64,000 nt of DNA from assembly GCA_019358915.1 (NCBI GenBank), contig JAHHIM010000001.1, forward strand, positions 1-64,000. Direction: 5' to 3'. The DNA is from Trichormus sp. ATA11-4-KO1 (GTDB lineage: Bacteria > Cyanobacteriota > Cyanobacteriia > Cyanobacteriales > Nostocaceae). A program made the translations under genes and the position numbers. Of this stretch, positions 24,503-40,509 are shown piece by piece (within the stretch, counting starts at the first letter, position 1; each line of letters starts with the position of its first letter). The notes beneath the pieces are model-generated. The model made no database searches. It was not told the origin of the DNA and worked only from the letters and a program-made list of their open reading frames with translations.

Positions 24503-24668
24503 TGGCTAGGGATTAGAGATTACTTGTGTGTACACGGTAGCATCTTCCCAATACCCCCACCTTCCCACCTTAAACTTGGGCAGACTACAGACGGCGTTAT
24601 ACATTAATAAATATATCTGTAACACCTGACTAATTCGGGCTTGGTATTTCACAGCGAAGGGTTTGGAA

Positions 24669-26156
24669 ATGTTTACTTCGTCAGAGATTCCCATAATTGG
24701 GACAATTTTACTAGTAGCTTTGGGTATTTTAGGTTGGGGCTTTTATCGCGCCAGACCTTTTGGGAAACTGGGAATCTTAGCCTGGTTGCAGTCGGTGGTA
24801 TTGATGACTCCCTGGCTGCTGTTCTTTGGTTTATTTGCTGCTGGAATTTATATCAATATAGTTGGTATCTTGATTTTGGTAGTAGTTTCTGCTGGGTTGT
24901 ACGTCTATTTAGGCAGACAGCTACGCACAGCTGGGCAAGATGCCATACTCAAGCAACGGGCGACAGAAAGACTAGCTGCTGATGCTGCACAAACAGCAGA
25001 AAATACTCCGCAGGTAGTGCTTGAGGAACTCAAAATTGAAACACTGCCAATTCCCGAAGCAGACTTAACTGCAATTAAAGGCATTTTCGGCATTGACACG
25101 TTTTTTGCTACAGAAACTATCTCCTACCAAGAAGGAGCGATTTTCAAAGGTAATCTGCGGGGGGAACCAGAAGAAGTTCACAACCGCCTAACTGCCAGCT
25201 TGCAGGAACGCTTAGGGGATAAATATCGGCTATTTTTAGTGGAAAACACAGACATGAAGCCTGTGGTGATTGTCCTACCTAGCCGTAATGATCCACGTCC
25301 AATGTCGTTACCGCAAAAATCCTTTGCGGTGATTCTGCTAATTGCAACGATCGCCACTAGTCTAGAAACTGCCGGTTTACTGCTGAATTTTGATTTATTC
25401 GTTAATCCAGAACGTGTGACAGCCGCTTTGCCCATAGGTGCTGGTATTTTCGCGATTTTGGTAACTCATGAAATCGGTCATTGGTTACTCGCCCGTCGTC
25501 ACCAAGTCCGCCTTAGTTGGCCGTTCTTTTTACCTGCTGTACAAATTGGCTCTTTTGGTGCTATTACCCGCTTTGAGTCTTTATTACCTAATCGCAAGGT
25601 ACTATTTGATATTGCTTTGGCAGGGCCAGCTGCTGGCGGTATTCTTTCTTTACTAATGTTGATTACAGGCTTGGTACTTTCCCATCCAGGTAGTTTATTT
25701 CAATTGCCCAATCAGTTTTTCCAAGGCTCAATTTTAGTAGGCAGCTTAGCACGGGTTGTCCTGGGTTCGGCGTTACAATCACCTGTTGTCAGTGTCCATC
25801 CCCTGGTGGTAATTGGTTGGCTAGGGTTAGTCATCACCGCTTTAAACTTAATGCCAGCCGGACAATTAGATGGTGGTCGTATTGTCCAAGCCATTTATGG
25901 ACGCAAAACCGCAGGGAGGGCCACCATCGCCACTTTAATTCTACTTGGGCTAATTTCTCTTGGTAATGCTCTTGCTATTTACTGGGCGGTAGTAATTTTC
26001 TTTTTACAAAGAGATTTAGAACGCCCCAGTTTAAACGAAATCAGTGAACCAGATGATGCCAGAGCTGCCTTAGGTCTTTTGGCTTTATTCTTAATGATTA
26101 CTACCCTGCTGCCACTAACTCCCGGCGTAGCAGGAAGATTAGGAATCGGAGGTTAA
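24669..26156 (+). CDS. site-2 protease family (M50) membrane metalloprotease
   Basis: HEIGH zinc motif, ALAGP and NLMPAGQLDGG motifs. Confidence 0.92.
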   Translation: MFTSSEIPIIGTILLVALGILGWGFYRARPFGKLGILAWLQSVVLMTPWLLFFGLFAAGIYINIVGILILVVVSAGLYVYLGRQLRTAGQDAILKQRATERLAADAAQTAENTPQVVLEELKIETLPIPEADLTAIKGIFGIDTFFATETISYQEGAIFKGNLRGEPEEVHNRLTASLQERLGDKYRLFLVENTDMKPVVIVLPSRNDPRPMSLPQKSFAVILLIATIATSLETAGLLLNFDLFVNPERVTAALPIGAGIFAILVTHEIGHWLLARRHQVRLSWPFFLPAVQIGSFGAITRFESLLPNRKVLFDIALAGPAAGGILSLLMLITGLVLSHPGSLFQLPNQFFQGSILVGSLARVVLGSALQSPVVSVHPLVVIGWLGLVITALNLMPAGQLDGGRIVQAIYGRKTAGRATIATLILLGLISLGNALAIYWAVVIFFLQRDLERPSLNEISEPDDARAALGLLALFLMITTLLPLTPGVAGRLGIGG

Positions 26157-26160
26157 CTTT

Positions 26161-26224
26161 AAAATTAAAAATTAAAAATTAAAAATTGGATTCTTCATTT
26201 TTAATTTTTAATTTTTAATTAATT
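26161..26224. repeat. inverted heptamer tandem repeat (AAAATTA)n/(TAATTTT)n between convergent genes
   Basis: About four units on each arm form a hairpin; may act as a terminator. Confidence 0.7.
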
Positions 26225-27475
26225 CTACGGTTTCCAACCTGTGAGCAGATTCGGATAAGCCGTCGGTGTGGGAAACATTTTTTGGAAGCCAGTTTGGCGT
26301 TTTAGGGGTTGTTCTTGGCTAAGATTCCAGAGGGTTTCATAGAAAAAGAAGGAAACTCCGGCAAATTTGCGATCGCGCACTGTTTGCACTTGGGTTTTAA
26401 TCTGTTCTATGGGTACGGTTCTATTTTTCAACCCGGATAAAATACCGATACTTACGGGAATATGACTACGAGCGGCTTTGACTTCGGGATACTCTAGTTC
26501 TTGAGTAAATACTTTTAAGTCATCCCGATATATCTGCAATACCAAGTCTTCGACAATTCCCATGCGTTCCCATCTTTGCCAGTCAGCTAAATAATATTCG
26601 TAGGAGAAACGCTGGGGATTAGGCGCAACGGAAACAATGCAATCTTTTTTACTAGCTTTGATGGCTGCAAATGTCCGTTTCATGAAGTCGGTAATTTTAT
26701 TGGCTCTCCATCTTACCCATTCTGGATTTTTTGGGTCTTTGGAGGGAGCTTGACCACGATGTTCTTTTTTGTATAGTGCTACTGTGTAGGGATCGTAGCC
26801 CAATTCAGATGGTAAGCCGAAATGATCATCAAATTGAATCCCGTCAATATCGTAGTTTCGGACGATTTCAACTATTAAATCTTGGATAAATTTCTGGACT
26901 TCTGGATGAAATGGATTTAACCACACACGATTATGTATGCCTTCTTTGACAATTTTACTACCATCGCTGCGACTGGTAAGCCATTGGGGACGATTTTTAG
27001 CTAAGAGGGAATCGGCCGGAGCCATAAAGCCAAATTCAAACCAGGGGATCACTTTTAACCCCTTTTTGTGTCCCTCGGTCACGATTTCTTTGAGCATATC
27101 TCGTCCTTGCAGTCCAGGTTCGGGATCGAGCGATCGCCCAATCACTTTAGCTGCAACTCGGCTGGGATACAGTGTATATCCCCAATTCCACACCGCAGGA
27201 TAAACTGTATTGAAGTTTAATTCATCTAGGCTTTGTAAGGCATTCTTCAGGCGATCGCTCTCAAACAGTACATCACTATCAATATTTGTCAGCCAGACTC
27301 CTCTTAACTCAGATGCTAGCGATCGCGGAAGTCTAGTTTGAGCATTCAGGGGAAACGATAGCATGACTGTAGCTATTATGCTCAAGGCAACCATTACAGC
27401 AAACAATGCCTGCTTTTTATTTGGAAAAATTGTCCTCTGAAAAGACTCTACATACCACTTGACAACTTTTTTCAT
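26225..27475 (-). CDS. glycoside hydrolase family 10-like (DUF187/GHL10) secreted protein
   Basis: ELRGVWLTNIDS, IPWFEFG, WLNPFHPEVQ and YDIDGIQFDDHF motifs; signal-like N-terminus. Confidence 0.85.
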   Translation of the reverse strand: MKKVVKWYVESFQRTIFPNKKQALFAVMVALSIIATVMLSFPLNAQTRLPRSLASELRGVWLTNIDSDVLFESDRLKNALQSLDELNFNTVYPAVWNWGYTLYPSRVAAKVIGRSLDPEPGLQGRDMLKEIVTEGHKKGLKVIPWFEFGFMAPADSLLAKNRPQWLTSRSDGSKIVKEGIHNRVWLNPFHPEVQKFIQDLIVEIVRNYDIDGIQFDDHFGLPSELGYDPYTVALYKKEHRGQAPSKDPKNPEWVRWRANKITDFMKRTFAAIKASKKDCIVSVAPNPQRFSYEYYLADWQRWERMGIVEDLVLQIYRDDLKVFTQELEYPEVKAARSHIPVSIGILSGLKNRTVPIEQIKTQVQTVRDRKFAGVSFFFYETLWNLSQEQPLKRQTGFQKMFPTPTAYPNLLTGWKP

Positions 27476-27906
27476 AATTTGTTACAGGCAGAAAATCACA
27501 TGAATTATGACTAGTATATTGGGACAGAAGTTGCGTTTTTGCCACTTGTGCTAAGTTGTTATTATCACTACAAGAATCTTTATTATCGTTAAACCTCTGC
27601 GTTCCTTTGCGTTGAAAAATAAAATCATGGGAATGCTCTTGTTACCGTCACCCAGCTAATCGAGTTGAGTGAATGAGTTGACATGCGATCGCCTAACTTA
27701 GTTCAATATAAATTTATTGTAAAAATTAAGGAACAAACTATCAGTATACCAGCGTCTATTATTACATCTACATCAGAAGACAGACGCCTAATAAGTCCCA
27801 AACATTTCAGTTTTGGGATAGTTTAATATTTTGCCTTTAATTGCTAGATATTAGTTTTAAATCCTTTCCATACTGACTAAGCACTAATAAATATTGGTGT
27901 TTTATT

Positions 27907-28644
27907 ATGAAGATAATGCTGAGAAAATATTACACTACCAATCAAGCCCGAATTGTTACTGCTTTAATTTTGACTGGTATTCTATCTGTTGGTAGCGGGT
28001 TAACACCCATGAAAAGCGCCACAGCAAATTCTGCCAACTTCACTCCAGAAATAACCAATGAAGTTTTAGCAGGAAATCACAACTTAAAGCGCTTACCCCC
28101 TCCAGTAGCCAATGCGGTGCTGCGAGATTTAGCCCGCAGACAGAACATTTCCACCAGAGAACTGAAAATTATTGATTATCGTCAACAGACTTGGCGTAAT
28201 GGTTGCTTGGAACTCCCTCAACCCGATGAATTCTGCACCCAAGCATTAGTACCAGGTTGGCGAGTTGTCGTATCTAATAATAGACAAAACTGGATTTATC
28301 ATACTAATCGTAATGGGCGTTCTTTACGGTTAGCTTCAACAAATACTTCCACGAATCCCTCAGCAAATCTACCTCAATCTGTCAGAAATGCGGTTTTACA
28401 AGCAGCTTCTAAAAGTTTACAACAACCAATTTCTCGGTTAACTATTACTCAAGCTCAACAGCAGACTTGGAGAGATGGTTGTTTGGAATTGGGAAATATC
28501 AATGAATTATGTAGTGCTGCATTGGTACCAGGTTGGCGGATAGTTGTTAGCGCTGTTGATCAAACATTGGTTTATCACACCAATCAAACAGGCTCCGTAG
28601 TTAGGCTGAATGAAAAGGCTAGCCAAATCAGTTATAAAGACTAA
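27907..28644 (+). CDS. secreted hypothetical protein with two Cys-containing internal repeats
   Basis: Signal-like N-terminus; repeats LPxxVxNAVL...QQTWR[ND]GCLEL...C..ALVPGWR[VI]VVS...YHTN..G. Confidence 0.8.
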   Translation: MKIMLRKYYTTNQARIVTALILTGILSVGSGLTPMKSATANSANFTPEITNEVLAGNHNLKRLPPPVANAVLRDLARRQNISTRELKIIDYRQQTWRNGCLELPQPDEFCTQALVPGWRVVVSNNRQNWIYHTNRNGRSLRLASTNTSTNPSANLPQSVRNAVLQAASKSLQQPISRLTITQAQQQTWRDGCLELGNINELCSAALVPGWRIVVSAVDQTLVYHTNQTGSVVRLNEKASQISYKD

Positions 28645-28772
28645 GTAGGTAGGCACAAATAAAATCAACTATGTAAAGAAAAATGAATCAGCTTAAAACC
28701 CTCTTCCCTTCTGCCTCCTGCCTTCTGCCTTCTGCCTTATCCTAGCGATAAATTTTCCCACCCACCTACTTA
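28642..28772. repeat. MITE-like element enclosing a (CTGCCTT)n heptamer repeat
   Basis: Termini TAAGTAGGT... and ...ACCTACTTA are inverted repeats; internal tandem heptamers at ~28704-28738. Confidence 0.6.
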
Positions 28773-29070
28773 TATGTAGTCATGTTGCTATCAGTCAATG
28801 TATTTTCCAAGCAAATAACGGTAGCAACGAAGATTTTAATGCTTTAGTCAAATGCAATGCAGTTGCAGTTCCAACGCTTTTAATCTACACCGAATCGCAC
28901 AATCAAGGTCTACGTATTGTCGCGATCGCTCCTTTTTATCTAGATAAAAATTTATCAATTCAATGATATTACAAATTATGTTAAAAATAGTAAGGTGAAC
29001 CAAAAGTTGTCAATCACTTTCGGGAACTAGGTAAGGTTACACTTGCCACCTCCCCCAAGAGCGATCGCCC

Positions 29071-29226
29071 CTCGATGCTACTGATGGGAATATCACAAAG
29101 GTGCAGAAATTGAGCCGTCCTGCTGACCCGCGAACACTGATGATTTCTGATGACAACCGGAATAAAGACCTGTGGGAGATGTCGGAATTGTTAACGGGGA
29201 TGGGGAAATGTTACAGCAACTTGTAA
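29071..29226 (+). pseudogene. C-terminal fragment of a tyrosine recombinase/integrase
   Basis: Not in the ORF track; my translation LDATDGNITKVQKLSRPADPRTLMISDDNRNKDLWEMSELL resembles integrase box II (VQKLSRH...TLMIYDDNR) with H>P and Y>S. Confidence 0.7.
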
Positions 29227-29282
29227 AATTTATGCTCCCCGGCCCACTAATATTGAAATTAAGAGAGTAGTTAAAACCACCC

Positions 29283-31823
29283 TTGACTATGAAGGGGAAA
29301 ATAAAAAACAATCAGGAAGATAGCCCAGTGGCTAAACATCAATCCAAACAGCGCTCACAAAAACACGTCTCTAGCACAGGGACGGAGCTTACTGAAAACT
29401 CCTTTAGGATGCAACTGCAAGAATTGCTGAAGCAGCAAAAATATCGGCAGGCATTGGAAGAAATCAAAAAAATTCAACGAACGCACCCTAATATCGAATT
29501 TACTCCCAAAGCATCAGAGATTTGGTTGCTGCGGGGTCAGCAAGAATTCCAAAAACAAGATTTTAAACAGGCAGAAAAATCCTTTGCCCGCGCTCTGGAA
29601 TTTGGTTTGGTTGGAGAAGTTCACTACTGGCAAGCTAGATGTTTGCTGGAGTTGAACCAATTAGATACTGCACTGAATTTGCTCAGAAATGCTTTTGAGG
29701 CAGGCAACCTCATCAAAGACTACAGCATCTGTTATCTCAAGCTCCTATTGCTCAAAGGAGATACCGCCACAGTTGAACAGTTAATTAACGAACAATCCAA
29801 ACGATTTAGCGCTGCCCAACTCCACTGGGTACGCGGGGTGCTGGCTCTCAAGCATGGAGAACACCAAGCCGCTTTGACATCTTTTCAAAAAATTAAGCGC
29901 CCGATTACACCAGGAGATTTACCAATTGCTTGGATTATTTACAGCCAGCAAGTAAGTGGTAATTGGAACGCAGCAGCTAATCTTTTGGGGTTGCAGTCAT
30001 CTAGATATACCTTCGGCAAACCAAAGTATTTGGAACATCCAATTTTAGAGCGATTGGCAACTGCCCAACAGGCTCATACTGGAATCCCACCCCTAGAAGC
30101 CCGGAATTGGGAACGAGAAGATCCAGTTATCCAAGATGCACTATCAGCTTTGGCGATTGTACAGCTAATTGATAGTGACAACCATCATGATGCTGCCCAT
30201 GTGTTGCTACAGATGTCCAAGCGTTCAACTCGTTTCTCAGAACTAAAGAACCTGCGAAAATCACTATTTACTCTTGCAGGTCAACAAGCACTGAATCAAG
30301 GAAAAGCAGAATGTGCGGAGTTATTTTGGCAGCCTTTGTTAACAGAGAAACCCTTCAATCCTCAGTTGGCAGTCAACCTGTTAGAAGTCTTAGACGCTAA
30401 TGATTCTGACAAAGAACGCCCCCGCGTTGTCACTCAATTTTTGCGGTGGTTAGAACAGGAAGGAAAACAAAAACCGCAAGAATGGCCAGATACACGCTTA
30501 AAACCAACCTTAGCTCATCTGCACTGCTGGATGGCAGATGCCTACATGGCAATAGGTCGGGAACGCGCCGCTTTCGGAGCATTGCAACAAGCAGAACGCA
30601 TTTGTCCCACATCGCCAGAGTTACTGGGGCGTAAAGGACTAGTTGCGGCAATGGAGGAAAATTATACTGAAGCGATCTCACTGCTTACCCAAGCACTAGA
30701 AGGTGGATGTCAGTATGTCGAAGTTTACGGCATTTTGCTGCGATGTTGGGAGAAAGTAGGAGACAAACAAGCACGTAATGAAGCTCGGCGGAAATTTGGC
30801 AAGCACTTTGGCGACCTGAGTATTGAAACTGAAGTGGAAATATTGCCTTGGGTAGATGCTCTATCTACGTTAAATTATCCCTTATTTAGCCGTCTGGTGC
30901 AGACAGAAGATAAAAAAGATCCTGCTATACGTGCTTGTCAGATATTCGTGAATGCAGTCCAAAGTCCGCCCAATTCCGGCGGTCGAGTTTCATTACACCA
31001 AAAAGCAGCATTTGTTGCATGGGACACTCTCCTGAAAAAATTATCTGGTCAAGAACAAATTCCTGTATTGCAGGCAATTTCTCTTTCTATCCACCTCTTC
31101 GCCAAACGTGAAAAAGGCATCGCCGCTTTAACAAGTCAGTATCTACAAAAATTATTCAACTTATCAACAGAATACCCAGAAGCCAGAGTTGCTCATTTAG
31201 TTGTTTTAGCCGTCAAAGAAAATAATCCCCAAAAACTAGAACCTCCTCTACGTAACTACCTCGACACGATGCCACAGCCAGGAAATGCTCTGGCAAATAT
31301 TCAACTCCAGGTGCGCCGTTTTGGCGAGATTACAACCCTTGTACCTGCCCTGTCAGAAGCACTACGTCGGGAACCCCAAAATCCTTTGCTACTATTAGCT
31401 AGAGCTACTACCTACCAGGTTGATCACCCAAACTATGAACAATTCAAGCAACAGGGATTTGAATTAGCCCGTCGTTTACAAGATGTCAAAGCATTGCAAG
31501 CATTTCGGGAAGAACAGGCTTTTCTCTCCGCTCAAGAAGTAACTAACATAATGCCAGACCCAGACAATTTTGACAATTTGGATATATCAAATATTGATGA
31601 GTTATTAGAGGGGATGCTTAAAAAAATGTTGGGTAACAAAATGTCCAAAGCTGAGTTTGAACGGATGCTTCCAGAACTCAAGCAAATGATGTTAAACAGT
31701 ATGCCTAACTTCGATGAAGATGAGGAAGAAGAGCCAGACTTAGACTTTATCTTTAGAAACTTACCACCTACATCTAAGAAACGAAAGGGTAGGAGAAAAG
31801 GAGGTTTTCAAGAATTATTTTAA
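29283..31823 (+). CDS. large TPR-repeat protein (846 aa; true start may be GTG 29328)
   Basis: Multiple TPR-like units (e.g. WLLRGQQEFQKQDFKQAEKSFARALE, LLGRKGLVAAMEENYTEAISLLTQALE); acidic then basic C-terminal tail. Confidence 0.85.
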   Translation: MTMKGKIKNNQEDSPVAKHQSKQRSQKHVSSTGTELTENSFRMQLQELLKQQKYRQALEEIKKIQRTHPNIEFTPKASEIWLLRGQQEFQKQDFKQAEKSFARALEFGLVGEVHYWQARCLLELNQLDTALNLLRNAFEAGNLIKDYSICYLKLLLLKGDTATVEQLINEQSKRFSAAQLHWVRGVLALKHGEHQAALTSFQKIKRPITPGDLPIAWIIYSQQVSGNWNAAANLLGLQSSRYTFGKPKYLEHPILERLATAQQAHTGIPPLEARNWEREDPVIQDALSALAIVQLIDSDNHHDAAHVLLQMSKRSTRFSELKNLRKSLFTLAGQQALNQGKAECAELFWQPLLTEKPFNPQLAVNLLEVLDANDSDKERPRVVTQFLRWLEQEGKQKPQEWPDTRLKPTLAHLHCWMADAYMAIGRERAAFGALQQAERICPTSPELLGRKGLVAAMEENYTEAISLLTQALEGGCQYVEVYGILLRCWEKVGDKQARNEARRKFGKHFGDLSIETEVEILPWVDALSTLNYPLFSRLVQTEDKKDPAIRACQIFVNAVQSPPNSGGRVSLHQKAAFVAWDTLLKKLSGQEQIPVLQAISLSIHLFAKREKGIAALTSQYLQKLFNLSTEYPEARVAHLVVLAVKENNPQKLEPPLRNYLDTMPQPGNALANIQLQVRRFGEITTLVPALSEALRREPQNPLLLLARATTYQVDHPNYEQFKQQGFELARRLQDVKALQAFREEQAFLSAQEVTNIMPDPDNFDNLDISNIDELLEGMLKKMLGNKMSKAEFERMLPELKQMMLNSMPNFDEDEEEEPDLDFIFRNLPPTSKKRKGRRKGGFQELF

Positions 31824-31888
31824 AATTTCTTTTTAAGGGGGTTGTATTTAGTAGTGATAACCAACAAATAGTAAATTGGGAATTTTTT

Positions 31889-32185
31889 ATGACTGACCAC
31901 TACGAACAATTAGGAATTTCTCCAGGAGCAACAAGCGCCCAAATTAAAGCGGCGTATCATGCCAAGCTGCGTGAATTTCCCGCTCATACTTATCCAGAAG
32001 AGTTTAAGGCAATTCGAGGAGCTTATGAGGCAGTTCGTAAAGGAGAAACAACTCAACATGAGGATTTCTTAAAATTTCGTCCACTAGAAGCAGAACTGAA
32101 TCCAGAGATATTAAAACAGGTGCGAGAAAAAGCGCTTGCTCAACTAGAAGTTAGCCTGGATGATTTAATTCGTGCCACATTTTAA
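31889..32185 (+). CDS. minimal J-domain-like protein lacking the HPD motif
   Basis: DHYEQLGISPGATSAQIKAAY...EEFKAIRGAYEAV follows J-domain helices I-III; the HPD position reads FPA. Confidence 0.85.
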   Translation: MTDHYEQLGISPGATSAQIKAAYHAKLREFPAHTYPEEFKAIRGAYEAVRKGETTQHEDFLKFRPLEAELNPEILKQVREKALAQLEVSLDDLIRATF

Positions 32186-32296
32186 ATAATTCGTAACGGG
32201 CTACGCTCTAAGCAAAGCTATGCCGCAGGCTTTACGTAATTCGTAATTGTTAGTTACTGATTTTTCTAATGTCCGCTAACTATTGACCAATGACTA

Positions 32297-33064
32297 ATGA
32301 CTAATGACAAAGAAGCTTTATTTGCCAAATTTCTAGATTATTTACACTCAGAACAACCACTCCCTGAATATCTGGGTGAACCACCAGAATCCGCTAATTC
32401 CTTTGACCCCTATCAAATGGTGGCAGAATGGACTGCCCTGCGCCATGAAGTTAAGCAACAGGGTAAACTATTGCGTTCTACTCAAGATGCTCTTGTGCAA
32501 GCATTGGAAGTAACTCGCGCAGATAAAGAACAGTTGCAAATACGTCTGGAAGAAAGCCAAAAACAGGCATGGGGACAATTTGAGCAGCAGCAGGAGAAAC
32601 TGTTAAAAGATTTGCTGGGTATCCTGGATGCTTTAGATCAGGCTTGTACTTACTGGCAAGAGGAAATAGAAGCATTATCTGCTACCTCAAAACCAAAACC
32701 AGCAACACAAAAAAGCTTCTGGGAGAAACTAGGACAATGGTTTCCTGGCAAGGAAGCTCAGTCAATAGTGTCTGAAAAATCACTAACATCATCAGATTTA
32801 AGTGAAATTTTAACCAGCAACCAACAGGGTGTGGAGTTAATTAGGCGATCTCTTTTAGAGTTACTACAACAACGGCGTGTTGTTCCGATTACATCTATGG
32901 GAAAACCTTTTGATTCCCAGACAATGTATGCTGTGGGACGTGAGTCTAGAACAGATGTTACAGACAATACCGTAATTCAGGAAATAGTACGGGGTTATTT
33001 ATGGGGCGAACGCGTTCTGAGGGAAGCACAGGTGATTGTAGCGGCACAAGGGACTCTTGATTAG
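32297..33064 (+). CDS. GrpE-like nucleotide exchange factor
   Basis: LLKDLLGILDALDQA, GVELIRRSL, GKPFDSQTMYAV and EIVRGYLWGERVLREAQVIV motifs. Confidence 0.88.
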   Translation: MTNDKEALFAKFLDYLHSEQPLPEYLGEPPESANSFDPYQMVAEWTALRHEVKQQGKLLRSTQDALVQALEVTRADKEQLQIRLEESQKQAWGQFEQQQEKLLKDLLGILDALDQACTYWQEEIEALSATSKPKPATQKSFWEKLGQWFPGKEAQSIVSEKSLTSSDLSEILTSNQQGVELIRRSLLELLQQRRVVPITSMGKPFDSQTMYAVGRESRTDVTDNTVIQEIVRGYLWGERVLREAQVIVAAQGTLD

Positions 33065-33113
33065 GGACGCTGGGGCTGGGGAAATTAGTGCAGTTTACTT
33101 TTAATGGAATTTT

Positions 33114-34874
33114 ATGAAAGCAGTTGGTATTGACTTAGGCACAACAAATTCCGAAGTGGCGATTGTCGAAAACGGACAGGTGCGGGTATTGCCAGGCGAA
33201 GATGGCGACTTAATTTTACCTTCCTGTGTGGGATTTAGCGATACGGGAAAACTACTAGTGGGGCGTGAAGCACTCCGTCAGTATGCAGCAGCACCTGAAC
33301 GTACCGTGAAGTCAATTAAGCGGTGGATGGGAACTGACCACAAAACCACTTTAGGAGACAAAGAATACTTACCTCACGAAGTTTCTGCTATTATTCTCCG
33401 CGCCCTGAAACAACGGGCTGAAAATGCTTTGGGAGAAACAATTACCCAAGCAGTGATTACGGTTCCAGCCTACTTTACGGACGCTCAACGGCAGGCAACT
33501 AAAACTGCTGGCGAGATAGCTGGTTTGGAGGTACTGCAAATTATCAACGAACCAACGGCGGCGGCTTTAGCTTATGATTTACGCTCCGAAGAGACGGAAC
33601 GAGTTGTAGTTTATGACTTGGGAGGTGGTACTTTTGATGTGTCGGTAGTTGAAATTACGGGTGAAGTTACAGAAGTACTAGCTAGTCATGGTAATAACCG
33701 CTTAGGTGGAGACGATTTCGACAGACTTTTGCAACTGCATCTGGCAGATTTATTCCGCAAACAGCATGGTGTCGATGTGCCAGATGATGCGGCTACCCAG
33801 GTGCGTCTCCTGAGAGCAGCAGAGCAGTTAAAAATTGACCTGAGTTCCCATGCTTTTGCCACAGTCCGGGAAGCCTTTTTAGGTAGTAAAGGCAAGACGG
33901 CACTACATCTGGAGACAGAAGTAGCACGAGCAGATTTTGAAAAATTGATTCGCCCACTATTGGCAGAAACCCTAGAGGCAATTGACCGCGCACTAACAGA
34001 CGCCAGCCTAGAACCCAATGAGATTGACCGGATTATCCTAGTTGGTGGTTCTACACGCATTCCTCTAGTACAACAAATGATCCAAGAGCATCTGGGACAA
34101 AACCCCACTGATGGCATTCAACCAGACCTTTGTGTAGCATTAGGAGCAGCTTTACAAGCTGGGGTACTGGTAGGTGAATCAGTGGATGCGATTCTTGTAG
34201 ATGTGATTCCCCATTCCCTGGGCATTGCTGCGGCTGTGCCTACACCAATGGGTATTATGCCAGGTTACTTCAGTGTGATTATTCCCCGCAACAGCGTTGT
34301 TCCCGTTTCTCGCTCTCATGTTTATTCCACTTTGTTTGATGAACAAGAAGTGGTAGAAATCGAAGTTTTTCAGGGAGAAAATGCGGTTGCTGAAGAAAAT
34401 GTTCCTCTAGGTTCCTTTAGAGTAGAGAACTTACCACCCAAACCAGCCGGAGGTATTGAAGTCGAGGTTCACTTTGACTTTGACCTAAATGGCATTCTCA
34501 CTGTCACCACTACTGAGAAAGGCAAAGGGCAACAAGGAACGCTAGTAGTAAATAATGCAGGTATCAAGAAACTTTCTAGCCATGAATTGAAGCAAGCAAG
34601 GGCAGATTTAGAGGCATTGTTTGACAGTGATGAAACAATTGAAATCTCAAGCGAAGAGACAAGCTCTGTAGTAGAAATCGCTCCAGAATTAGCAGCACTT
34701 TTAGACCGCGCGGGGCAAGCACTTCTTACGGTAGACTCTGAACAAGCTCTTGAATTACAAGACTTATTAGGACAGATTGAAAATGCGATCGCTAACAATA
34801 ATCCAGAACTACCCCAGTTAAAAGAAGAACTCTCAGATTTTCTTTACTACGCAATTTCCAATGAGTCAGAGTGA
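33114..34874 (+). CDS. Hsp70-family chaperone (divergent DnaK paralog)
   Basis: GIDLGTTNS, VITVPAYF, INEPTAAALAY, YDLGGGTFDVS, LGGDDFD and LVGGSTRIP motifs; substrate-binding beta domain present; lid region divergent and short. Confidence 0.95.
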   Translation: MKAVGIDLGTTNSEVAIVENGQVRVLPGEDGDLILPSCVGFSDTGKLLVGREALRQYAAAPERTVKSIKRWMGTDHKTTLGDKEYLPHEVSAIILRALKQRAENALGETITQAVITVPAYFTDAQRQATKTAGEIAGLEVLQIINEPTAAALAYDLRSEETERVVVYDLGGGTFDVSVVEITGEVTEVLASHGNNRLGGDDFDRLLQLHLADLFRKQHGVDVPDDAATQVRLLRAAEQLKIDLSSHAFATVREAFLGSKGKTALHLETEVARADFEKLIRPLLAETLEAIDRALTDASLEPNEIDRIILVGGSTRIPLVQQMIQEHLGQNPTDGIQPDLCVALGAALQAGVLVGESVDAILVDVIPHSLGIAAAVPTPMGIMPGYFSVIIPRNSVVPVSRSHVYSTLFDEQEVVEIEVFQGENAVAEENVPLGSFRVENLPPKPAGGIEVEVHFDFDLNGILTVTTTEKGKGQQGTLVVNNAGIKKLSSHELKQARADLEALFDSDETIEISSEETSSVVEIAPELAALLDRAGQALLTVDSEQALELQDLLGQIENAIANNNPELPQLKEELSDFLYYAISNESE

Positions 34875-34880
34875 GAAATC

Positions 34881-35354
34881 ATGAAATGTCCTGTCTGTGG
34901 TGCAGTTTATCGTCCAATAAAGGGGAGCAGAGTCGGGATTGAGCAGCATAATAAGCATAATAATGATTATAAGGAAGAAACTGCTACCATATCTGCCTCA
35001 TCTTCCCCATCTCCCTTACTCAGCACTGCTTCTTCCTCCCCAACTTGCAGACGCTGCAAAGTAGACTTGTCTGACTTGTTCCGTCTGCACGACCAAGCCA
35101 TCTGGTATCACAGACAAGCAATACATTTATTGACACAAGGACGTTATCCAGAGGCTGCAGCGCACAATAATCAAGCTCTAGTTTTGTATTACAGCAATGC
35201 AGACTTCCATACCTTGGCGGGTAAATTATCGGCATTGCAAGGAAAATGGAGAGAAGCAATCTCATCTTGGCAACAAGCACTCAAGTTTGATCCACAAAAT
35301 GTCATTGCTTCTAATTGTCTGCAAATGATTGAGCTAATGACAAAAAATTGTTAA
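34881..35354 (+). CDS. zinc-ribbon plus TPR protein
   Basis: CPVC and CRRC pairs followed by two TPR-like units ending WQQALKFDPQN; starts 6 bp after the Hsp70 stop. Confidence 0.8.
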   Translation: MKCPVCGAVYRPIKGSRVGIEQHNKHNNDYKEETATISASSSPSPLLSTASSSPTCRRCKVDLSDLFRLHDQAIWYHRQAIHLLTQGRYPEAAAHNNQALVLYYSNADFHTLAGKLSALQGKWREAISSWQQALKFDPQNVIASNCLQMIELMTKNC

Positions 35355-35689
35355 TAAATGCAGGTTTCAAAATGTTACGACATAATACCGTGCGCTACAC
35401 GCAAATTTCACCGCAACGGTTTGAGTCTTTTGAGTTATTAAAGGTTTATTGTCATCGCGCTCCACTGTAATTTGTAGTACTTTGTAAGTACCATCTTTAA
35501 TATCAATGGTTGTGCGATGAATGGCACTAAGAAAAGCGAAAAGGTATGCAGGATAAGGACTACAGCTTTTAAAGCTATTGAAGAATGAAGGGAAGGGTTT
35601 TAGTCCACCGCAGGCGATCGCAAAAATTTTCGGTCTACTGAAGTTGCATTTGCGTTTTTGACAATCAACAGCCTAGAGGAGATATTGTA

Positions 35690-36199
35690 ATGACTTTTGA
35701 AAGAAAGGTAGCAGGAATCTTTAATATGAGCGAAACCACTTGGGAACGTCATGCCAATCCCTGGAGTGGGTGGACACGTATCATTACTGGGCTACCGTTT
35801 CTGATACTGGCTTTTTGGAGTCGAATTTGGCTTGGTTGGTGGGCACTGATTCCTATTGCTATCGTAGTTCTTTGGATATGGTTAAACCCACGCATCTTTC
35901 CTAAACCACGTTCAACCAACAATTGGGTTTCAAAATCGGTTCTAGGCGAACGAGTTTGGTTGAACCGTGACAAAATTTCAGTACCCCAGCATCATCGTCG
36001 TGTACCTAACATTCTCTCTGCTATTTCTGCTTTAGGTGGAGTTTTGGTGATTTGGGGCTTAGTTACTCTCAATATCTGGATTACACTGCTCGGAACCACC
36101 TCACACTACTCTGGCAAATTATGGTATCTGGATCGCATGGTTTGGCTTTATGAAGAGATGAAAGAGACAAACGCAGATTATCGGAGTTGGCTATATTAA
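35690..36199 (+). CDS. conserved membrane protein (DUF6653-like)
   Basis: WERHANPWSGWTR, WLNPRIFPKP, VLGERVWL and KLWYLDRMVWLY motifs; AGAGGAG SD. Confidence 0.7.
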   Translation: MTFERKVAGIFNMSETTWERHANPWSGWTRIITGLPFLILAFWSRIWLGWWALIPIAIVVLWIWLNPRIFPKPRSTNNWVSKSVLGERVWLNRDKISVPQHHRRVPNILSAISALGGVLVIWGLVTLNIWITLLGTTSHYSGKLWYLDRMVWLYEEMKETNADYRSWLY

Positions 36200-36262
36200 A
36201 GCGGTAGTCTAAGCTCGACTTTATCCATTTTTACGAAACGGAGAGCGATTTTTTTCGGGTGA

Positions 36263-36520
36263 ACAGTAGATATTCACTGCCAAAATCAGGTATATAACAA
36301 TGCGAGCACCTATATGGTAGTTAACAAGCTAGCAGAAGAAATTGCACCAAATGACTGGTACTTTAATGTAGTTCTGCGCGGTGCTGTCACCTGTGGACTA
36401 CCAGAGGAATATTGCTGGCATTTGTTTAATCATATGTACCAATTGCAACAGCGTCATCAAGAACAGCAAATCATGCGATCGGCTGAGCAATTATCAGTAC
36501 AACTAATTATCCAAACCTGA
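36263..36520 (+). pseudogene. 3' fragment of a gamma-glutamylcyclotransferase-family gene
   Basis: Frame reads VDIHCQNQVYNNASTYMVVNKLAEEIAPNDWYFNVVLRGAVTCGLPEEY, bounded upstream by TGA at 36260; the N-terminal YFAYGS motif is absent. Confidence 0.65.
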
Positions 36521-36650
36521 TATAAAATATCAGAAAACCCCAAGCTAGATTTAGCTGAGGTTTTAAGGCTATTTTCTATTAAATAGTCATAAGATTTAAC
36601 TTTTTTTGCTTCCTGGATTCAGGAGCCAAAAAGAATCAATCTAGACTTAT

Positions 36651-36953
36651 TTAGTAACGGCTACGGAAATTACCGCCGCCACGGTTACCACCAAAGGAAC
36701 CTCTATTATCTTCTCTGGGCTTAGCCTTATTCACTTTCAGGTCACGTCCCATCCATTCAGCACCATCAAGAGCTTCAATGGCTGCTGTTTCTTCATCATC
36801 TGTACCCATTTCAACAAATCCAAAACCGCGTAGTTGTCCTGTTTCGCGGTTAGTAGGTAGTTGAACGCGTTTTACAGAACCATATTCTGCAAAAACAGCA
36901 CTTAAAGTATCTTGTGTAACTTCGTAAGAGAGGTTGCCTACATAAACTGACAT
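36651..36953 (-). CDS. RRM RNA-binding protein (Rbp family) with Gly-rich tail
   Basis: RNP2 VYVGNL, RNP1 RGFGFVEM and WMGRDLKVNKAKPRE motifs. Confidence 0.96.
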   Translation of the reverse strand: MSVYVGNLSYEVTQDTLSAVFAEYGSVKRVQLPTNRETGQLRGFGFVEMGTDDEETAAIEALDGAEWMGRDLKVNKAKPREDNRGSFGGNRGGGNFRSRY

Positions 36954-37065
36954 AGATTTTCTCCAAAATCGTAAGAGTGTAGAGATTTCGATTTCGGGGA
37001 AAAGTCTGTAAATACCAAAAGGAAAGAGCCTGTCAATACTAAAAACAAAAGCTGTCCGCCGAATA
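36954..37065 (-). promoter_or_regulatory. conserved 5'-UTR boxes of cold-inducible cyanobacterial rbp genes
   Basis: Minus strand contains TTCGGCGG, TTTGTTTTTAGT and TCCCCGAA followed by a TTTTGGAGA SD, resembling the boxes described for Anabaena rbp leaders. Confidence 0.55.
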
Positions 37066-37341
37066 AATTCTCACTCTCCTACTATGACACAGCGGCCAAG
37101 GATTAGGGAGGAAGTGGGAAAAATTGTTATAAAAATACACATTATCCCAAGTTGCGATAATTTGCCGTCACTTGATGGCTGAAAGTACCATGAAAATAAG
37201 ATTTCCGAAAAAATCAGCCTCAAGTTATGAGCGATCGCCGAGTAAATTGGCAAAAACTCGCATGTTCACATAAATTTCGTGGTGAGTTTAATTAGCAGTA
37301 GCTACGTCCAGACCAAACACACCAGGGCAGCGAAGAAGCAA

Positions 37342-38331
37342 CTACAATGTGATCACAACTTTTCCCACTGCTTGACCAGACTCTGTGTGACGGTGAGCTT
37401 CTGCAATTTCAGCCAAACTAAATATCTGAAAATCAAGTAATGGACGTAGTTTTTTTTCATCTACCAATTGAGCTAATTTCCAGAGAATTTCTCCGTGATG
37501 GCTGCGACCTACACCGTATAGCATTGGAATCAACATGTAGACCAAGTGTAGTGTTAGTCCTTTGGCATGGAGCAATGTTAAATCCTGTTTTGAAATGGAA
37601 ACTAAAGAAACAACTGTTCCATTCAATCTTGCAGCTTTAAATGCATTCTGAAGATTATCATTACCTACAGTATCAAACACCACATCAAAACCTTGTCCAT
37701 CGGTGAATTCTGCCACAAATTCCTCAACTGGCTGTTGACGGTAGTTGATAGCGAAGTCAGCCCCAATTTTGTTGGCAATTATCGCCTTTTCATCACTAGA
37801 AATCAGTGCATATACCGTTGCACCTACCCACTTTGCCAGTTGAACCACAATGTGACCGACACCCCCGGTTGCTCCGTAAACCAAAACTTTTTGTCTAGGC
37901 TGAACCTGAGCGCGGTCAATTAATCCTTCCCAAGCCGTAATTGAAACTAAAGGTAGTGCAGCTGCTTCTGCCATAGTTAGTGACTTTGGTTTGAAAGCAA
38001 CTAAATTGTTGTCAGCAAGCATATACTCTGCTAAAGCTCCGCCCAATCCTTTTACACCACCAGCACAAGCATAGACTTCATCCCCAGCCTTGAAGCGATG
38101 AACTCCTTCTCCCACTGCTTCAATAACCCCAGCCACATCTCCATGCAGAATAGCTGGAAAATTAGGGGTAATATCCCCTAAAATGCCTTGTCGTATTTTC
38201 AAGTCAACTTGATTTACACTTGTTGCGGCCACTCGAATCAGGACATGATTAGGAAGAACTTCTGGAATAGGCAAATCTGCCTGTTGAAAAATATTTGGTT
38301 CGCCAAATTTCTCAATTACCCAAGCTTTCAT
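37342..38331 (-). CDS. MDR-family NAD(P)H:quinone oxidoreductase-like protein
   Basis: ILHGDVAGVI, AAALPLVSITAWEGL, GATGGVG and GKVVI motifs; ATG 38331. Confidence 0.88.
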   Translation of the reverse strand: MKAWVIEKFGEPNIFQQADLPIPEVLPNHVLIRVAATSVNQVDLKIRQGILGDITPNFPAILHGDVAGVIEAVGEGVHRFKAGDEVYACAGGVKGLGGALAEYMLADNNLVAFKPKSLTMAEAAALPLVSITAWEGLIDRAQVQPRQKVLVYGATGGVGHIVVQLAKWVGATVYALISSDEKAIIANKIGADFAINYRQQPVEEFVAEFTDGQGFDVVFDTVGNDNLQNAFKAARLNGTVVSLVSISKQDLTLLHAKGLTLHLVYMLIPMLYGVGRSHHGEILWKLAQLVDEKKLRPLLDFQIFSLAEIAEAHRHTESGQAVGKVVITL

Positions 38332-38432
38332 AGTCTTGCTTATCTGTAGAAACCTACATTTATTAAGTATCATTGCAGTATTCCCGCTTAAAAGGATTTA
38401 CACAAAAGTGCAATACTTACTTTTTGGTAAAC

Positions 38433-38885
38433 ATGACTCCGAATCTTGATTTCGACAACTGTCAACTGAGTTATCCACCTCAACCAGCCCTTGAGCGGAT
38501 CGCGAAAATGAACATCTTCGACACAAGTTGTGCAGGGCATCAGATGCTGGAACACATTGCCAATAAATGGACAATTTTGATTATCTATGCTTTGACACAA
38601 GGGAAGAAAAGATATAGCGAACTCAAGCAACAGATTGTGGGTGTCTCACCTAAAATGTTGATCCAAAATCTCCGAAATTTAGAGCGATGTGGACTGATTA
38701 AGAGAGAGGTCTACCCAACTATTCCTCCACGAGTCGAATACTCACTTACTCCGCTTGGTACTTCTCTTGTAGATCCATTAGCAATACTTGGTGAGTGGGC
38801 GTATCGGCACATTCAAGATGTAAAAACTGCGCTGGAACACTACAACAGCAATCCAAACGCTAATGATTATTGGCAGCCCAAGTAG
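38433..38885 (+). CDS. HxlR-family winged-helix transcriptional regulator
   Basis: IANKWTILII, KRYSELK and REVYPTIPPRVEYSLTPLG motifs; divergent from the oxidoreductase; start uncertain (38433 or 38508). Confidence 0.9.
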   Translation: MTPNLDFDNCQLSYPPQPALERIAKMNIFDTSCAGHQMLEHIANKWTILIIYALTQGKKRYSELKQQIVGVSPKMLIQNLRNLERCGLIKREVYPTIPPRVEYSLTPLGTSLVDPLAILGEWAYRHIQDVKTALEHYNSNPNANDYWQPK

Positions 38886-38958
38886 CTCACATAATGTAAT
38901 TTTTTACTTGTAGTCAAAATTACAAAACTAGAATAAACATCCTTTGATAAGTGCTGTA

Positions 38959-40356
38959 TCATCCCTTGCTAATCAAATTCGCCATTGCTTGCTGTAGATC
39001 ATTCGTCAAGTCAGCAACAGCTTGCCTGGCACCCAAACGATTCTCTTTATACATTGGGTAACGCTCAGAAACCGATATCGGCTCACCGATGGTAATGTTC
39101 ACCCGTTGCTTACCTAGTTGCGGACGCTGATCAGCTTTATCACCTTTAATCCGAGCAATCATCTTCCATAAAATTAAAGTTGTTTCAGCAAACCTTTCTA
39201 CTGTGGGTTTTTCGCGGATATAGTTGCCGGAAACTGCGACAAAACTTTCTACTAACCGCATGTGCCACATTCGGGAATTGGCTTCATCAGCCACGCGATC
39301 GCCTAACGCTTTCTCCACAGGCGACAATGCTTTGATATCTTTAAATTCTTCTCTAAATATATAATTCCAGCCAGCCTGCTCTACCCGGCGACAGCGATCG
39401 CTCAAATTACCTTTCGGCTGTAAATCAAAGTATTCCTCTGATATTTGTAGCGCTGCATTCAATAAAGCTTGCAAACGCATTGCCAAGACTTCATTGCGAT
39501 CGCTGGTTCCCCCTGCTACAGTTTTGGCATCTGGCAAATTTTGATGGTAGAACCTTGTGTAAAACTGTTCCATCAACAACAGTAAATGTTCTGCTAAATT
39601 TAATAGCCGGGGATAAAGTAACTCCAGAGTAGGACTATCCCCTTGCTTGCCTAAATTCACAGCTAAACCACTAGCGGCTTCTAATTCACTTAAAAGATTA
39701 GCGATCGCTTCCCAAGGAGCTGCAACATAATTATATTTAATCCCAACTGGTACAATTAAAACCTGTTCAGAACGTCCCAGCTTGTGCAAATCTTCCGCAC
39801 ACCAAAAGCCTAATTGGGCGATCCCAGGTTCCAGGGGACTGATAATCTCCGATAAACCATTAGTAGCACCTTCTGGCGCGGCAGCCATAGGAAATTTCCC
39901 GTTGGCGAACAAGTCCCGTGCTGAACGTAACCCTGTCCAATCAGCCTTACCTCGTTGGATGGGGGTAGCACCTAAACGCGAAGCCATCCAGCCAACGTGG
40001 GAACCAGCCCATAGAGGAATGCCGCGATCGTAGATAAAATGAGCATGAATCGGCAGTTGTAGCACTTTACCCTGTCGTGCTACTTTTGGCACGAGTTGAG
40101 AAAACAAATAGCCTAAACAAAATGGATCATCTGTTTTGGGATGGCGAAATGCTAGCAAAAAGCGAATTTTACCTGCTTGAAATTGGCGATAAAGATCCAC
40201 CAAAACTTCTAAGTTGTCTGCTTCAATTTGGGTAATAGCTGTTTGCCAACTGATCCAACTGGGTAGTAACAGATGAACAGCTCTCAGAAATACAGGATTG
40301 AGGGCTGGAGGAATGAATTCTAAAGGTGCTTGTGCTTGATAAAGCATATCTGACAA
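38959..40356 (-). CDS. phospholipid/glycerol acyltransferase family protein
   Basis: RHPKTDD (HX4D), APEG and IVPVGIKY motifs. Confidence 0.82.
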   Translation of the reverse strand: MSDMLYQAQAPLEFIPPALNPVFLRAVHLLLPSWISWQTAITQIEADNLEVLVDLYRQFQAGKIRFLLAFRHPKTDDPFCLGYLFSQLVPKVARQGKVLQLPIHAHFIYDRGIPLWAGSHVGWMASRLGATPIQRGKADWTGLRSARDLFANGKFPMAAAPEGATNGLSEIISPLEPGIAQLGFWCAEDLHKLGRSEQVLIVPVGIKYNYVAAPWEAIANLLSELEAASGLAVNLGKQGDSPTLELLYPRLLNLAEHLLLLMEQFYTRFYHQNLPDAKTVAGGTSDRNEVLAMRLQALLNAALQISEEYFDLQPKGNLSDRCRRVEQAGWNYIFREEFKDIKALSPVEKALGDRVADEANSRMWHMRLVESFVAVSGNYIREKPTVERFAETTLILWKMIARIKGDKADQRPQLGKQRVNITIGEPISVSERYPMYKENRLGARQAVADLTNDLQQAMANLISKG

Positions 40357-40509
40357 GGTTATTTTCTCCTAAAGTTCTAGTAAAAACAGGCAGAAAGCTG
40401 AAGACTATCAGTAACAATGAACAATAAATCACAATTTATACTTACTTCATACTTCATCCTTAATACTTCATACTTGAGAAATTAGCAATTTTGGAAAGGT
40501 AATATAACG

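Follow-up and report, generated by a model that had tools for sequence, protein, structure and literature searches.

We have analyzed a stretch of 64,000 nucleotides from Trichormus sp. ATA11-4-KO1 (assembly GCA_019358915.1, contig JAHHIM010000001.1, positions 1 to 64,000 of the forward strand), referred to below as the window, in which five adjacent genes encode an Hsp70, a J-like protein, a GrpE-like protein and two proteins with tetratricopeptide repeats (TPR). The five open reading frames (ORFs) are all located on the plus strand (29283-31823, 31889-32185, 32297-33064, 33114-34874 and 34881-35354) and encode proteins of 846 (counted from a TTG codon), 98, 255, 586 and 157 amino acids (aa), respectively. 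The gaps between them measure 65, 111, 49 and 6 bp, and the co-oriented five-gene arrangement reported in a preliminary description of this DNA, which had been made from the sequence alone, was found exactly as given there. Since the homologues of the large TPR protein begin to align at residue 5-6 of the 846-aa ORF, we have preferred the ATG at 29289, which is probably the true start and yields a protein of 844 aa. The genes of the module are:

29289..31823, plus strand: large TPR protein, putative scaffold, 844 aa (Pfam TPR families; 288 homologues; the ORF opens with a TTG at 29283)
31889..32185, plus strand: J-like protein, 98 aa, with PAH in place of HPD (Pfam DnaJ, 28.6 bits; alignments)
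32297..33064, plus strand: GrpE-like putative nucleotide exchange factor, 255 aa, with a divergent N-terminal half (Pfam GrpE, 89.1 bits)
33114..34874, plus strand: HscC-type Hsp70, 586 aa (Pfam, NCBIfam, alignment and trees)
34881..35354, plus strand: zinc-ribbon (CPVC...CRRC) and TPR protein, 157 aa (Pfam TPR; alignment)

The first and the fifth proteins match TPR families of Pfam, and in the fifth one the repeats are preceded by cysteines (CPVC...CRRC) that are invariant. The match of the GrpE-like protein to PF01025 (89.1 bits, cut-off 25.8) extends over residues 164-249 and covers profile positions 79-164 only, and the protein stays under every NCBIfam GrpE equivalog cut-off (best score 63.9 vs 137). 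The C-terminal beta domain is kept across 20 GrpEs encoded by modules of this kind. Promoter and terminator scans of the region 28600-36300 gave counts at the level of chance (12 vs 13.5±3.8 and 7 vs 8.3±2.7, respectively), and are thus no basis for setting the limits of an operon.

The fourth gene encodes a member of the Hsp70 superfamily, as its score against PF00012 (528.4 bits, cut-off 20.6) indicates. The ATPase motifs are intact (GIDLGTTNS, DLGGGTFD, VGGSTRIP and the equivalents of Lys70 and Glu171), and both a hydrophobic linker (AILVDV) and a substrate-binding domain are present, as are the two strings quoted from this protein in the preliminary description, DAILVDVIPHSLG at residue 358 and AVPTPMGIMPGYF at residue 374. 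The protein nevertheless scores under the NCBIfam cut-offs for DnaK (567.8 vs 648, 564 vs 822.55; NF001413 / TIGR02350) and also under the HscA equivalog cut-off. In a FastTree phylogeny of 166 rows (the 150 best library representatives, 8 orthologues, 4 paralogues from the same genome, the window protein, and DnaK, HscA and HscC of E. coli), E. coli DnaK and all four DnaKs of the Trichormus genome formed a 53-row clade (support 99), and the window Hsp70 was located in an 80-row clade (support 95) together with E. coli HscC. In an IQ-TREE analysis of 45 chosen rows, with SH-aLRT support, the DnaKs grouped in one clade (11 rows, 97), and a second clade (33 rows, 99) comprised HscC and the module proteins, including 12 module-linked Hsp70s from Chloroflexota and metagenome loci. 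The latter clade is divided into a 23-row sub-clade (99), which contains the window Hsp70 and all the modules having a separate small J protein, and a 10-row sub-clade (93), in which E. coli HscC is accompanied by the loci where J and TPR are fused in one protein. The placement outside the DnaK clade in both trees supports the earlier proposal of a dedicated Hsp70 system separate from DnaK1-3 and, together with the scores under the cut-offs, rules out that the window Hsp70 is a DnaK1-3 paralogue. Judged from the alignments and trees, it is an Hsp70 of the HscC-type lineage, outside the DnaK1-3 clades.

Some structural traits of this protein can be aligned with those of E. coli HscC, i.e., a deletion of about 24 residues in lobe I of the nucleotide-binding domain (NBD; DnaK 76-101 region) and an insertion of 6 residues in the L1,2 loop. 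The lid is short and ends in ELSDFLYY followed by an acidic tail, and the motif ELxDFLYY is kept in the family. The preliminary description had singled out the extended loop and the short lid as distinctive; both are indeed present, but they are family traits of HscC-type Hsp70s and nothing special to this one. According to PMC8215388 (here, as for the other papers cited by PMC number, our statements refer to excerpts of the published text), HscC-type proteins have the NBD lobe I deletion, an L1,2 insertion of 4-8 residues and a length of 550-580 residues, lack the GrpE signature loop and need no nucleotide exchange factor. The window Hsp70 has 586 aa (506-592 aa in its orthologues) vs the 550-580 of the HscC type, and it departs from the absence of loop and exchange factor, since the module encodes a GrpE-family gene. 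A cluster look-up of the ten best Hsp70 representatives returned no organism names.

The genome of this strain encodes four canonical DnaKs in addition to the window Hsp70, which is the fifth, and an NBD-only relative; the housekeeping GrpE gene adjoins one of the DnaK genes on contig C9. Next to a UvdE UV-endonuclease gene, contig C36 encodes a protein of 531 aa in which an Hsp70-type NBD is the only domain (L006:811-2406; 101.9 bits). On contig C19, a gene adjoining a ferritin/Dps gene encodes a 229-aa fusion of a Cro/C1-type helix-turn-helix domain (HTH_26) with a GrpE-like domain (L011:1195-1884), an unusual architecture that is atypical of GrpE.

The J-like protein barely exceeds the cut-off of the Pfam DnaJ family (28.6 bits against PF00226, cut-off 27.8), its relatives scoring 31-47.5 bits. 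The J-like domain comprises residues 1-56 and is followed by a conserved C-terminal tail (residues 57-98) that ends in SLDDLIRATF, and the protein has neither a G/F region nor a zinc finger nor client-binding domains. At the position of the HPD motif it reads PAH, and the loop that follows lacks 6 residues relative to that of E. coli DnaJ. PAH is found in 12 of 13 cyanobacterial-type J sequences (RCH in the other one), the remaining 19 module J proteins read [PSTR]-P-[ED], and the His of HPD is missing from all of them. A protein search with the mini-J alignment retrieved 1494 matches, of which the best 120 were all cyanobacterial and are uninformative on other phyla.

In the PAH lineage alone, the altered J motif is accompanied by a change in the Hsp70, where Q142 of the window protein occupies the position of R167 of DnaK. 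Leaving aside two pairs that were unreadable, all the J proteins with H at the Asp35 position are paired with an Hsp70 that has Q at the Arg167 position (13/13), and all those with E or D at the former are paired with R at the latter (17/17). This change falls on the exact residue pair of a known suppressor, in which DnaK R167H suppresses DnaJ D35N (Suh 1998, cited in PMC5519331). In canonical systems the loss of HPD abolishes ATPase stimulation; HPE is the only replacement known as tolerated, other changes are fatal to the function of the J domain, and it "remains enigmatic" whether J proteins without HPD are an accident or have been selected (PMC13254874).

The AF2 model of the large TPR protein is an all-alpha solenoid that spans residues 32-805 (mean pLDDT 83.7, pTM 0.47). 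Foldseek related it to generic long TPR scaffolds (Ctr9, Ski3, Naa15, TTC7B) with a TM of ~0.2, an ESM Atlas look-up of the protein returned generic TPR clusters only, and 60 columns are invariant among 49 sequences of the family. Complex modelling of the TPR and J-like proteins, in line with a check that the preliminary description had proposed for the components, placed the tail of the J-like protein in a groove of the TPR protein. The ipSAE of this pair was 0.76 (runs 0.75, 0.77 and 0.76) vs 0.00 for the best control, with a partner pLDDT of 76 and at least 95% contact agreement between runs; the 0.76 mark is reached by 116 of 157 solved complexes and by 2 of 215 mismatched pairs, counts that apply only roughly here, as the present models were built from our own alignments. 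In the modelled interface, residues 57-98 of the J-like protein lie within the groove formed by TPR residues 116-411 and the J-like domain is free, which supports that the TPR protein may hold the C-terminal tail of its J-like neighbor. The fused J-TPR relatives and the overlapping TPR and J reading frames of Chloroflexota, both described below, agree with a TPR-J unit. The 846-aa TPR protein had been proposed as either client or adaptor of the chaperone; from the tail model and the fused relatives it looks like a scaffold or adaptor and not like the client.

The survey of gene neighborhoods showed that the gene set recurs in cyanobacteria, in metagenome-assembled genomes (MAGs) of Chloroflexota and on metagenome contigs, in line with the conserved synteny that the preliminary description had proposed to check. 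The TPR, mini-J and GrpE-like genes are adjacent in 9 of 10 cyanobacterial loci; in the tenth (G122) the set is split three ways yet complete, with mini-J and GrpE-like genes together on another contig. The Hsp70 gene directly follows these three genes in three loci and comes after insertions of 2 or 5 kb in two others, and in five genomes it is located at a distance (24 kb or 475 kb) or on a different contig. Of the 12 cyanobacterial loci with an Hsp70 gene, 10 have the zinc-ribbon/TPR gene directly 3' of it (the exceptions are G038 and G392), and in Nostocaceae the zinc-ribbon/TPR gene always comes directly after the Hsp70 gene. The Hsp70 is 91-96% identical across genera.

The junction between the GrpE-like and Hsp70 genes is a repeated landing site of insertions (L024, L026 and L028). 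The inserts encode Uma2 nucleases (Uma2/PDC-S03), PIN proteins, an AAA_21 and DUF4276 pair (HEC-01-like), YhaV/PrlF and a SNF2 helicase. At another locus (L038:9736-11496), a group II intron reverse transcriptase is encoded directly upstream of a displaced Hsp70 gene.

Three MAG loci of Chloroflexota (Caldilineaceae-type; L044, L046 and L047) contain TPR (755-877 aa), small J (121-126 aa), GrpE (339-352 aa) and Hsp70 (584-593 aa) genes in the same order, and their reading frames overlap or abut. The genome of L047 is flagged as unpublished, and the claim for this phylum also stands on L044 and L046. A scan of genome contigs with P0127 confirmed at least 7 loci, and a metagenome scan yielded 68 loci, 37 of them with a near-whole Hsp70; 95 ORFs from 22 of these loci, with GC contents of 0.27-0.65, were scanned. 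An adjacent J protein was found in 18 and an adjacent GrpE in 16 of the 22, and no J was seen in 4 of the 22. The order big ORF, small J, GrpE, Hsp70 is present in 9 loci (seven of the big ORFs have Pfam TPR matches), the order GrpE, Hsp70, TPR, small J in 2, and GrpE and Hsp70 followed by a fused J and TPR protein, which may include SEC-C, in 3; L103 is a fourth possible J-TPR fusion, whose J match is weak and sub-threshold. Genes of 95-99 aa with the CPVC/CRRC signature come directly after the Hsp70 gene in L076, L078 and L082. In L062, L065 and L090 a TPR protein is encoded after the Hsp70 and has, past its repeats, a hydrophobic stretch that is likely a membrane anchor.

Of the 401 cyanobacterial genomes sampled, 12 had the TPR protein (8 of 45 in the family of the window), and 11 of the same 401 had an Hsp70 orthologue (E ≤ 1e-170), all among the 12 TPR carriers. 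Both genes co-occur even when they are unlinked (24 kb or 475 kb apart, or on separate contigs). The twelfth TPR genome (G065) contains only a deletion relic on a 3.4-kb contig (L023), where TPR residues 429-649 abut GrpE-like residues 23-251; thus, the end of the TPR gene, the mini-J gene and the start of the GrpE-like gene have been deleted, and no orthologous Hsp70 was found in this genome. Among sampled Chloroflexota, 6 of 301 genomes encode the Hsp70 at orthologue level. The module is therefore rare, and its distribution is patchy, as had been predicted.

Several copies are located on plasmids. The whole cassette is found, with 86% nucleotide identity, on a Nostoc plasmid of 40 kb, beside a tyrosine recombinase and an IS607 transposase, and the nearest TPR homologue, with 97% identity, is annotated as plasmid-borne. 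Four Acaryochloris plasmids also carry module copies, one strain having copies on three plasmids. On two of them, pMB02 and pMB03 (L119 and L120), the four-gene core is decaying by frameshifts or stops, i.e., the Hsp70 lies in 2-3 frames, the GrpE gene is split in one copy, and the TPR gene has a stop and a frameshift in the other. In G306 (L025:6610-14779) the five-gene module is inserted between ureE-ureF and a UreG-type gene, interrupting a urease accessory cluster.

Contigs from RNA libraries of three studies, which derive from relatives with 80-99% identity, cover all five genes, and one contig of 4130 nt spans the GrpE-like, Hsp70 and zinc-ribbon/TPR genes. The depth of such contigs cannot rank genes or show operon structure, and uncovered parts are uninformative. 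These contigs are a hint that the module is expressed in relatives. The RNA-library contigs of relatives break at 32200-32300, in the mini-J/GrpE spacer.

The preliminary description had also placed the module on an island, and this was borne out by comparison with a genome of the same genus (G401) that has no module at the same site. Contig C29 of G401 matches window positions 24600-28638 and 36262-40400 with 95-97% nucleotide identity, and the two matches are about 990 bp apart. The module DNA was not found in G401, where a mini-J search gave ordinary DnaJ matches only. Therefore, the insert extends from about 28639 to 36261 (~7.6 kb). The features of the island and its edge are:

28639..36261, no strand: inserted island with a dispersed repeat, the five-gene module and a DUF6653 gene (comparison with G401)
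28637..28774, no strand: 133-bp dispersed repeat at the left island edge (six more copies, 99-100% identity, on other contigs of the same genome)
35690..36199, plus strand: DUF6653 gene, inside the island and outside the module (Pfam DUF6653, 224.8 bits)
36314..36520: AIG2-like remnant, 68-aa ORF (matches only the last 31 profile positions; gamma-glutamylcyclotransferase-type)

The 133-bp repeat looks like a miniature mobile element. The GC content of the island (0.40-0.48) is not distinct from that of the window. The DUF6653 gene was not found beside the module in any other locus examined, nor does any flank gene of the window accompany the module at those loci. The module had been described as lying between two gene remnants, and this holds for the downstream side, where the C-terminal AIG2-like fragment sits past the DUF6653 gene in the shared flank outside the island; upstream, no remnant was recognized. 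The upstream gene at 27907-28644 encodes a 245-aa protein without a Pfam family, which consists of two similar halves (QTWRNGCLEL...LVPGWR appears twice) and has a hydrophobic N-terminal stretch that, judged by eye, resembles a putative signal peptide. G401 contains an additional partial copy of the 3' end of this gene at the island site. The spacers at 32186-32296 (mini-J/GrpE) and 35355-35689 (after the fifth gene) contain short dispersed repeats, and incomplete copies of these are found at other places of the genome.

Taking these data together, we consider it probable that the five genes constitute a private, horizontally mobile and self-contained HscC-type Hsp70 machine with a split TPR-J adaptor. 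The superhelix of the 844-aa TPR protein would bind the tail (residues 57-98) of the 98-aa J-like protein, and both would act as a split "TPR-J" co-chaperone in which the J-like domain, left free, would reach its own Hsp70 at the site where J domains usually dock. This docking site would have been re-wired in both partners, by PAH in the J-like protein and by Q at the Arg167 position of the Hsp70, and the re-wiring would probably insulate the pair from the DnaK/DnaJ network of the host. The dedicated GrpE would reset the Hsp70, and TPR scaffold residues ~412-805, together with the zinc-ribbon/TPR protein, would select the client or the place of action; the remainder of the scaffold and the zinc-ribbon/TPR protein may also bind the C-terminal ELxDFLYY/acidic tail of the Hsp70. 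Most likely, the machine uses ATP to remodel one or a few conserved proteins of the cell as putative clients; such a trait would be accessory and of use in certain conditions only.

Some observations do not fit easily with this proposal. The pairwise identity of the window Hsp70 is 39-43% to DnaKs vs 37% to E. coli HscC, and because identity favors the DnaKs, the link to HscC rests on the trees and the shared indels. Unlike HscC, the window clade keeps its own GrpE, and in the window Hsp70 the loop of the GrpE signature region, which E. coli HscC has lost, is as long as in DnaK. The binding of the J-like protein to the TPR protein is predicted from a single model score. As the Q/H co-substitution is confined to one clade, it represents a single evolutionary event, and a J-like protein lacking both the His and the Asp may, by analogy with canonical systems, be a pseudo-J that only tethers. 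In G038 and G392 the Hsp70 lid is truncated (538 and 506 aa, respectively) and there is no zinc-ribbon/TPR gene; thus, the fifth gene is not universal. The nucleotide identity of the module to other genera (77-87%) is like that of a flanking M50 protease gene (77-78%), and because the module diverges about as much as this housekeeping gene, much of the patchiness could reflect loss and not transfer. Finally, the RNA-library contigs may contain DNA.

Three other explanations have been weighed. According to the first one, which we regard as unlikely, the module is a broad-spectrum accessory stress chaperone (heat, desiccation, metal) that acts on many unfolded proteins. It would explain the complete ATPase, linker and substrate-binding domain of the Hsp70 and the retention of a nucleotide exchange factor, since such factors have been argued to be important for many-client chaperoning (PMC8215388); the same work reports that E. 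coli HscC binds a broad range of peptides and that its loss causes sensitivity to Cd2+ and UV, and the module is mobile and accessory. However, its sole J-type partner has neither HPD nor a class A/B client-binding domain and is predicted to be locked into the TPR scaffold, no heat-shock regulator or heat-shock genes recur beside the module, and the strain is already equipped with a housekeeping GrpE as well as four canonical DnaKs.

The second explanation is an anti-phage or conflict system, in which a foreign protein would be sensed through the TPR proteins and the Hsp70 would respond by holding, unfolding or releasing something. The preliminary description had offered, as a speculation, a stress- or phage-sensing switch, and the tests carried out (PADLOC, flanks, effector recurrence and conservation) gave it no support. 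The patchy occurrence (12/401 and 6/301 genomes), the carriage on islands and plasmids and the defence-type or toxin-antitoxin genes carried by the inserts that divide the operon (L024, L026 and L028) are what such a system might show, and there are precedents in the Hsp70, GrpE and DnaJ-/TPR-fused proteins of predicted GTPase-centred conflict systems (PMC7159879) and in the report that DnaJ mediates phage sensing by bNACHT25, here taken from an excerpt. Against this, four of the proteins match no family of PADLOC-DB v2.0.0 and the Hsp70 has one match of 33.5 bits, over a 190-residue stretch of its NBD, to the candidate PDC-M61B. None of the 8 flank ORFs of the window matches PADLOC, and the outer flanks elsewhere are housekeeping (ure genes, PBP, ferrochelatase, murein ligase). 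A PADLOC scan of 100 flank ORFs gave 18 matches at E ≤ 1e-8, about 10 of them to generic domains and about 8 defence-like, and the latter are located within the insertions that interrupt the operon or beside displaced Hsp70 genes and not around the module. No nuclease, protease, NTPase or other effector recurs beside the module (92 flank ORFs from 12 loci and 95 ORFs from 22 metagenome loci), in agreement with the earlier statement that no nuclease or toxin effector is recognizable. Moreover, an Hsp70 with 91-96% identity across genera and a TPR protein with 60 invariant columns are unlike fast-evolving sensors, and no orthologue-level copy was found in phage records, where all 39 matching records have less than 60% identity. 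A defence role is therefore not supported, and we find this explanation quite improbable.

The 39 phage-labelled records contain DnaK-like genes that are 41-46% identical to the window Hsp70 (hits H9-H23). Several of them are very short and unannotated, and may be bacterial DNA.

A related idea, in which we likewise place little belief, is that of a portable and insulated Hsp70 device without any toxin. The TPR protein would capture a foreign or stress-exposed protein (e.g., from a phage or plasmid), and the Hsp70, triggered only by its own HPD-less J protein through PAH/Gln142, would unfold or sequester it. If this were true, a chaperone would act as an immune or surveillance effector, and there would be a natural Hsp70/J pair that works without His-Pro-Asp.

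A function for the mobile element itself, e.g., to activate or remodel a protein of plasmid replication or partition, in the way that DnaK serves some plasmid initiators, is very improbable. The cassette is indeed the largest recognizable cargo of a 40-kb plasmid that also encodes ParM/StbA, ParA, a MobF relaxase and a DUF5906 protein, and copies are found on four Acaryochloris plasmids. However, most copies are chromosomal and have housekeeping genes but no plasmid genes as neighbors, genes for replication or partition do not recur beside the module, and two of the Acaryochloris plasmid copies examined are frameshifted.

This module, for which we favor the proposal of a private HscC-type machine with a split TPR-J adaptor, is a natural test case. 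A family of HPD-less J proteins is maintained by selection across phyla and linked genetically to an Hsp70, a GrpE and a TPR scaffold of its own, and both sides of the classic Asp35-Arg167 contact have changed in one lineage. The module also shows that a complete Hsp70 system can travel as one cassette on plasmids and islands, which bears on the evolution of proteostasis capacity and chaperone specificity.

DnaK derivatives have been called unexplored (PMC13580251), and the literature search, which did not cover Barriot et al. 2020 and Fig. S1 of PMC9239167, yielded no published description of the module; to this extent it is still the candidate undescribed system that the preliminary description had proposed. 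In the DnaK1-DnaJ3-GrpE system of Nostoc punctiforme, involved in pilus and polysaccharide functions, the DnaK is canonical and dnaK1 lies between the housekeeping grpE and dnaJ (PMC9239167). The module was considered as the equivalent of this system and rejected, as the grpE-dnaK pair of this genome is located on contig C9 and the DnaK of that pair falls in the canonical clade, apart from the window Hsp70. Paralogous Hsp70, GrpE and J/TPR modules outside the housekeeping operon are found in the GAP1-N2 GTPase conflict systems, where FNIII proteins are fused to DnaJ or TPR, and the excerpt of that work describes them only inside GTPase systems, in actinobacteria and firmicutes (Kaur et al., 2020; PMC7159879). 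Neither a GAP1-N2-type GTPase nor an FNIII-repeat protein was found in the 92 flank ORFs of 12 loci or the 95 ORFs of 22 metagenome loci, and the only P-loop GTPase matches among flank ORFs were CobW/UreG-type housekeeping genes.

In Myxococcus xanthus, a dedicated GrpE-like gene (MXAN_6672) is located directly upstream of the DnaK paralogue MxDnaK2 (MXAN_6671) in one operon (PMC11019930). The likeness concerns the gene arrangement, and the available text of that work reports no TPR or J-like partner. The housekeeping DnaK-DnaJ-GrpE set shares with the module the same three families, the ATPase motifs and the hydrophobic linker, and the ATP cycle is presumably the same; the module differs in that its proteins fall in a separate clade and under the DnaK, DnaJ and GrpE equivalog cut-offs, its J protein has no HPD, two TPR proteins are added, and it is accessory and mobile.

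In the eukaryotic co-chaperones DNAJC7/TPR2 and DNAJC3/p58IPK, TPR repeats and a J domain act as one co-chaperone, as is predicted here. The J domain of DNAJC7 needs the contact of its TPR with the C-terminal EEVD tail of Hsp70 (PMC13254874), and the window Hsp70 similarly ends in a conserved acidic/aromatic tail, for which a TPR contact is only putative. Unlike DNAJC7 and DNAJC3, the module has two separate genes, a far larger TPR part and a J protein that has lost HPD, and between the module and these proteins no homology was detectable beyond the repeats.

The HscC system of E. coli (locus ybeQ-ybeR-djlB-ybeT-ybeU-djlC-hscC) belongs to the same Hsp70 super-clade (95; SH-aLRT 99). Both share the NBD lobe I deletion, the L1,2 insertion, a short lid and an acidic/aliphatic C-terminal tail, and HscC is also sporadically distributed (PMC8215388). 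The exclusive J partners of HscC, DjlB and DjlC, are also non-HPD proteins, with HPE (PMC10410713, PMC13254874), and its locus also has genes for TPR-like (Sel1) repeats. Unlike HscC, the window Hsp70 is located in the sister sub-clade of 23 rows (SH-aLRT 99) and has Q and not R at the position of DnaK 167. Whereas DjlB and DjlC carry a tail anchor, measure 480 aa and have HPE, the J protein of the window is a soluble protein of 98 aa with PAH, and in place of the short Sel1 proteins and DUF1266 of the HscC locus, its partner is a TPR scaffold of 844 aa.

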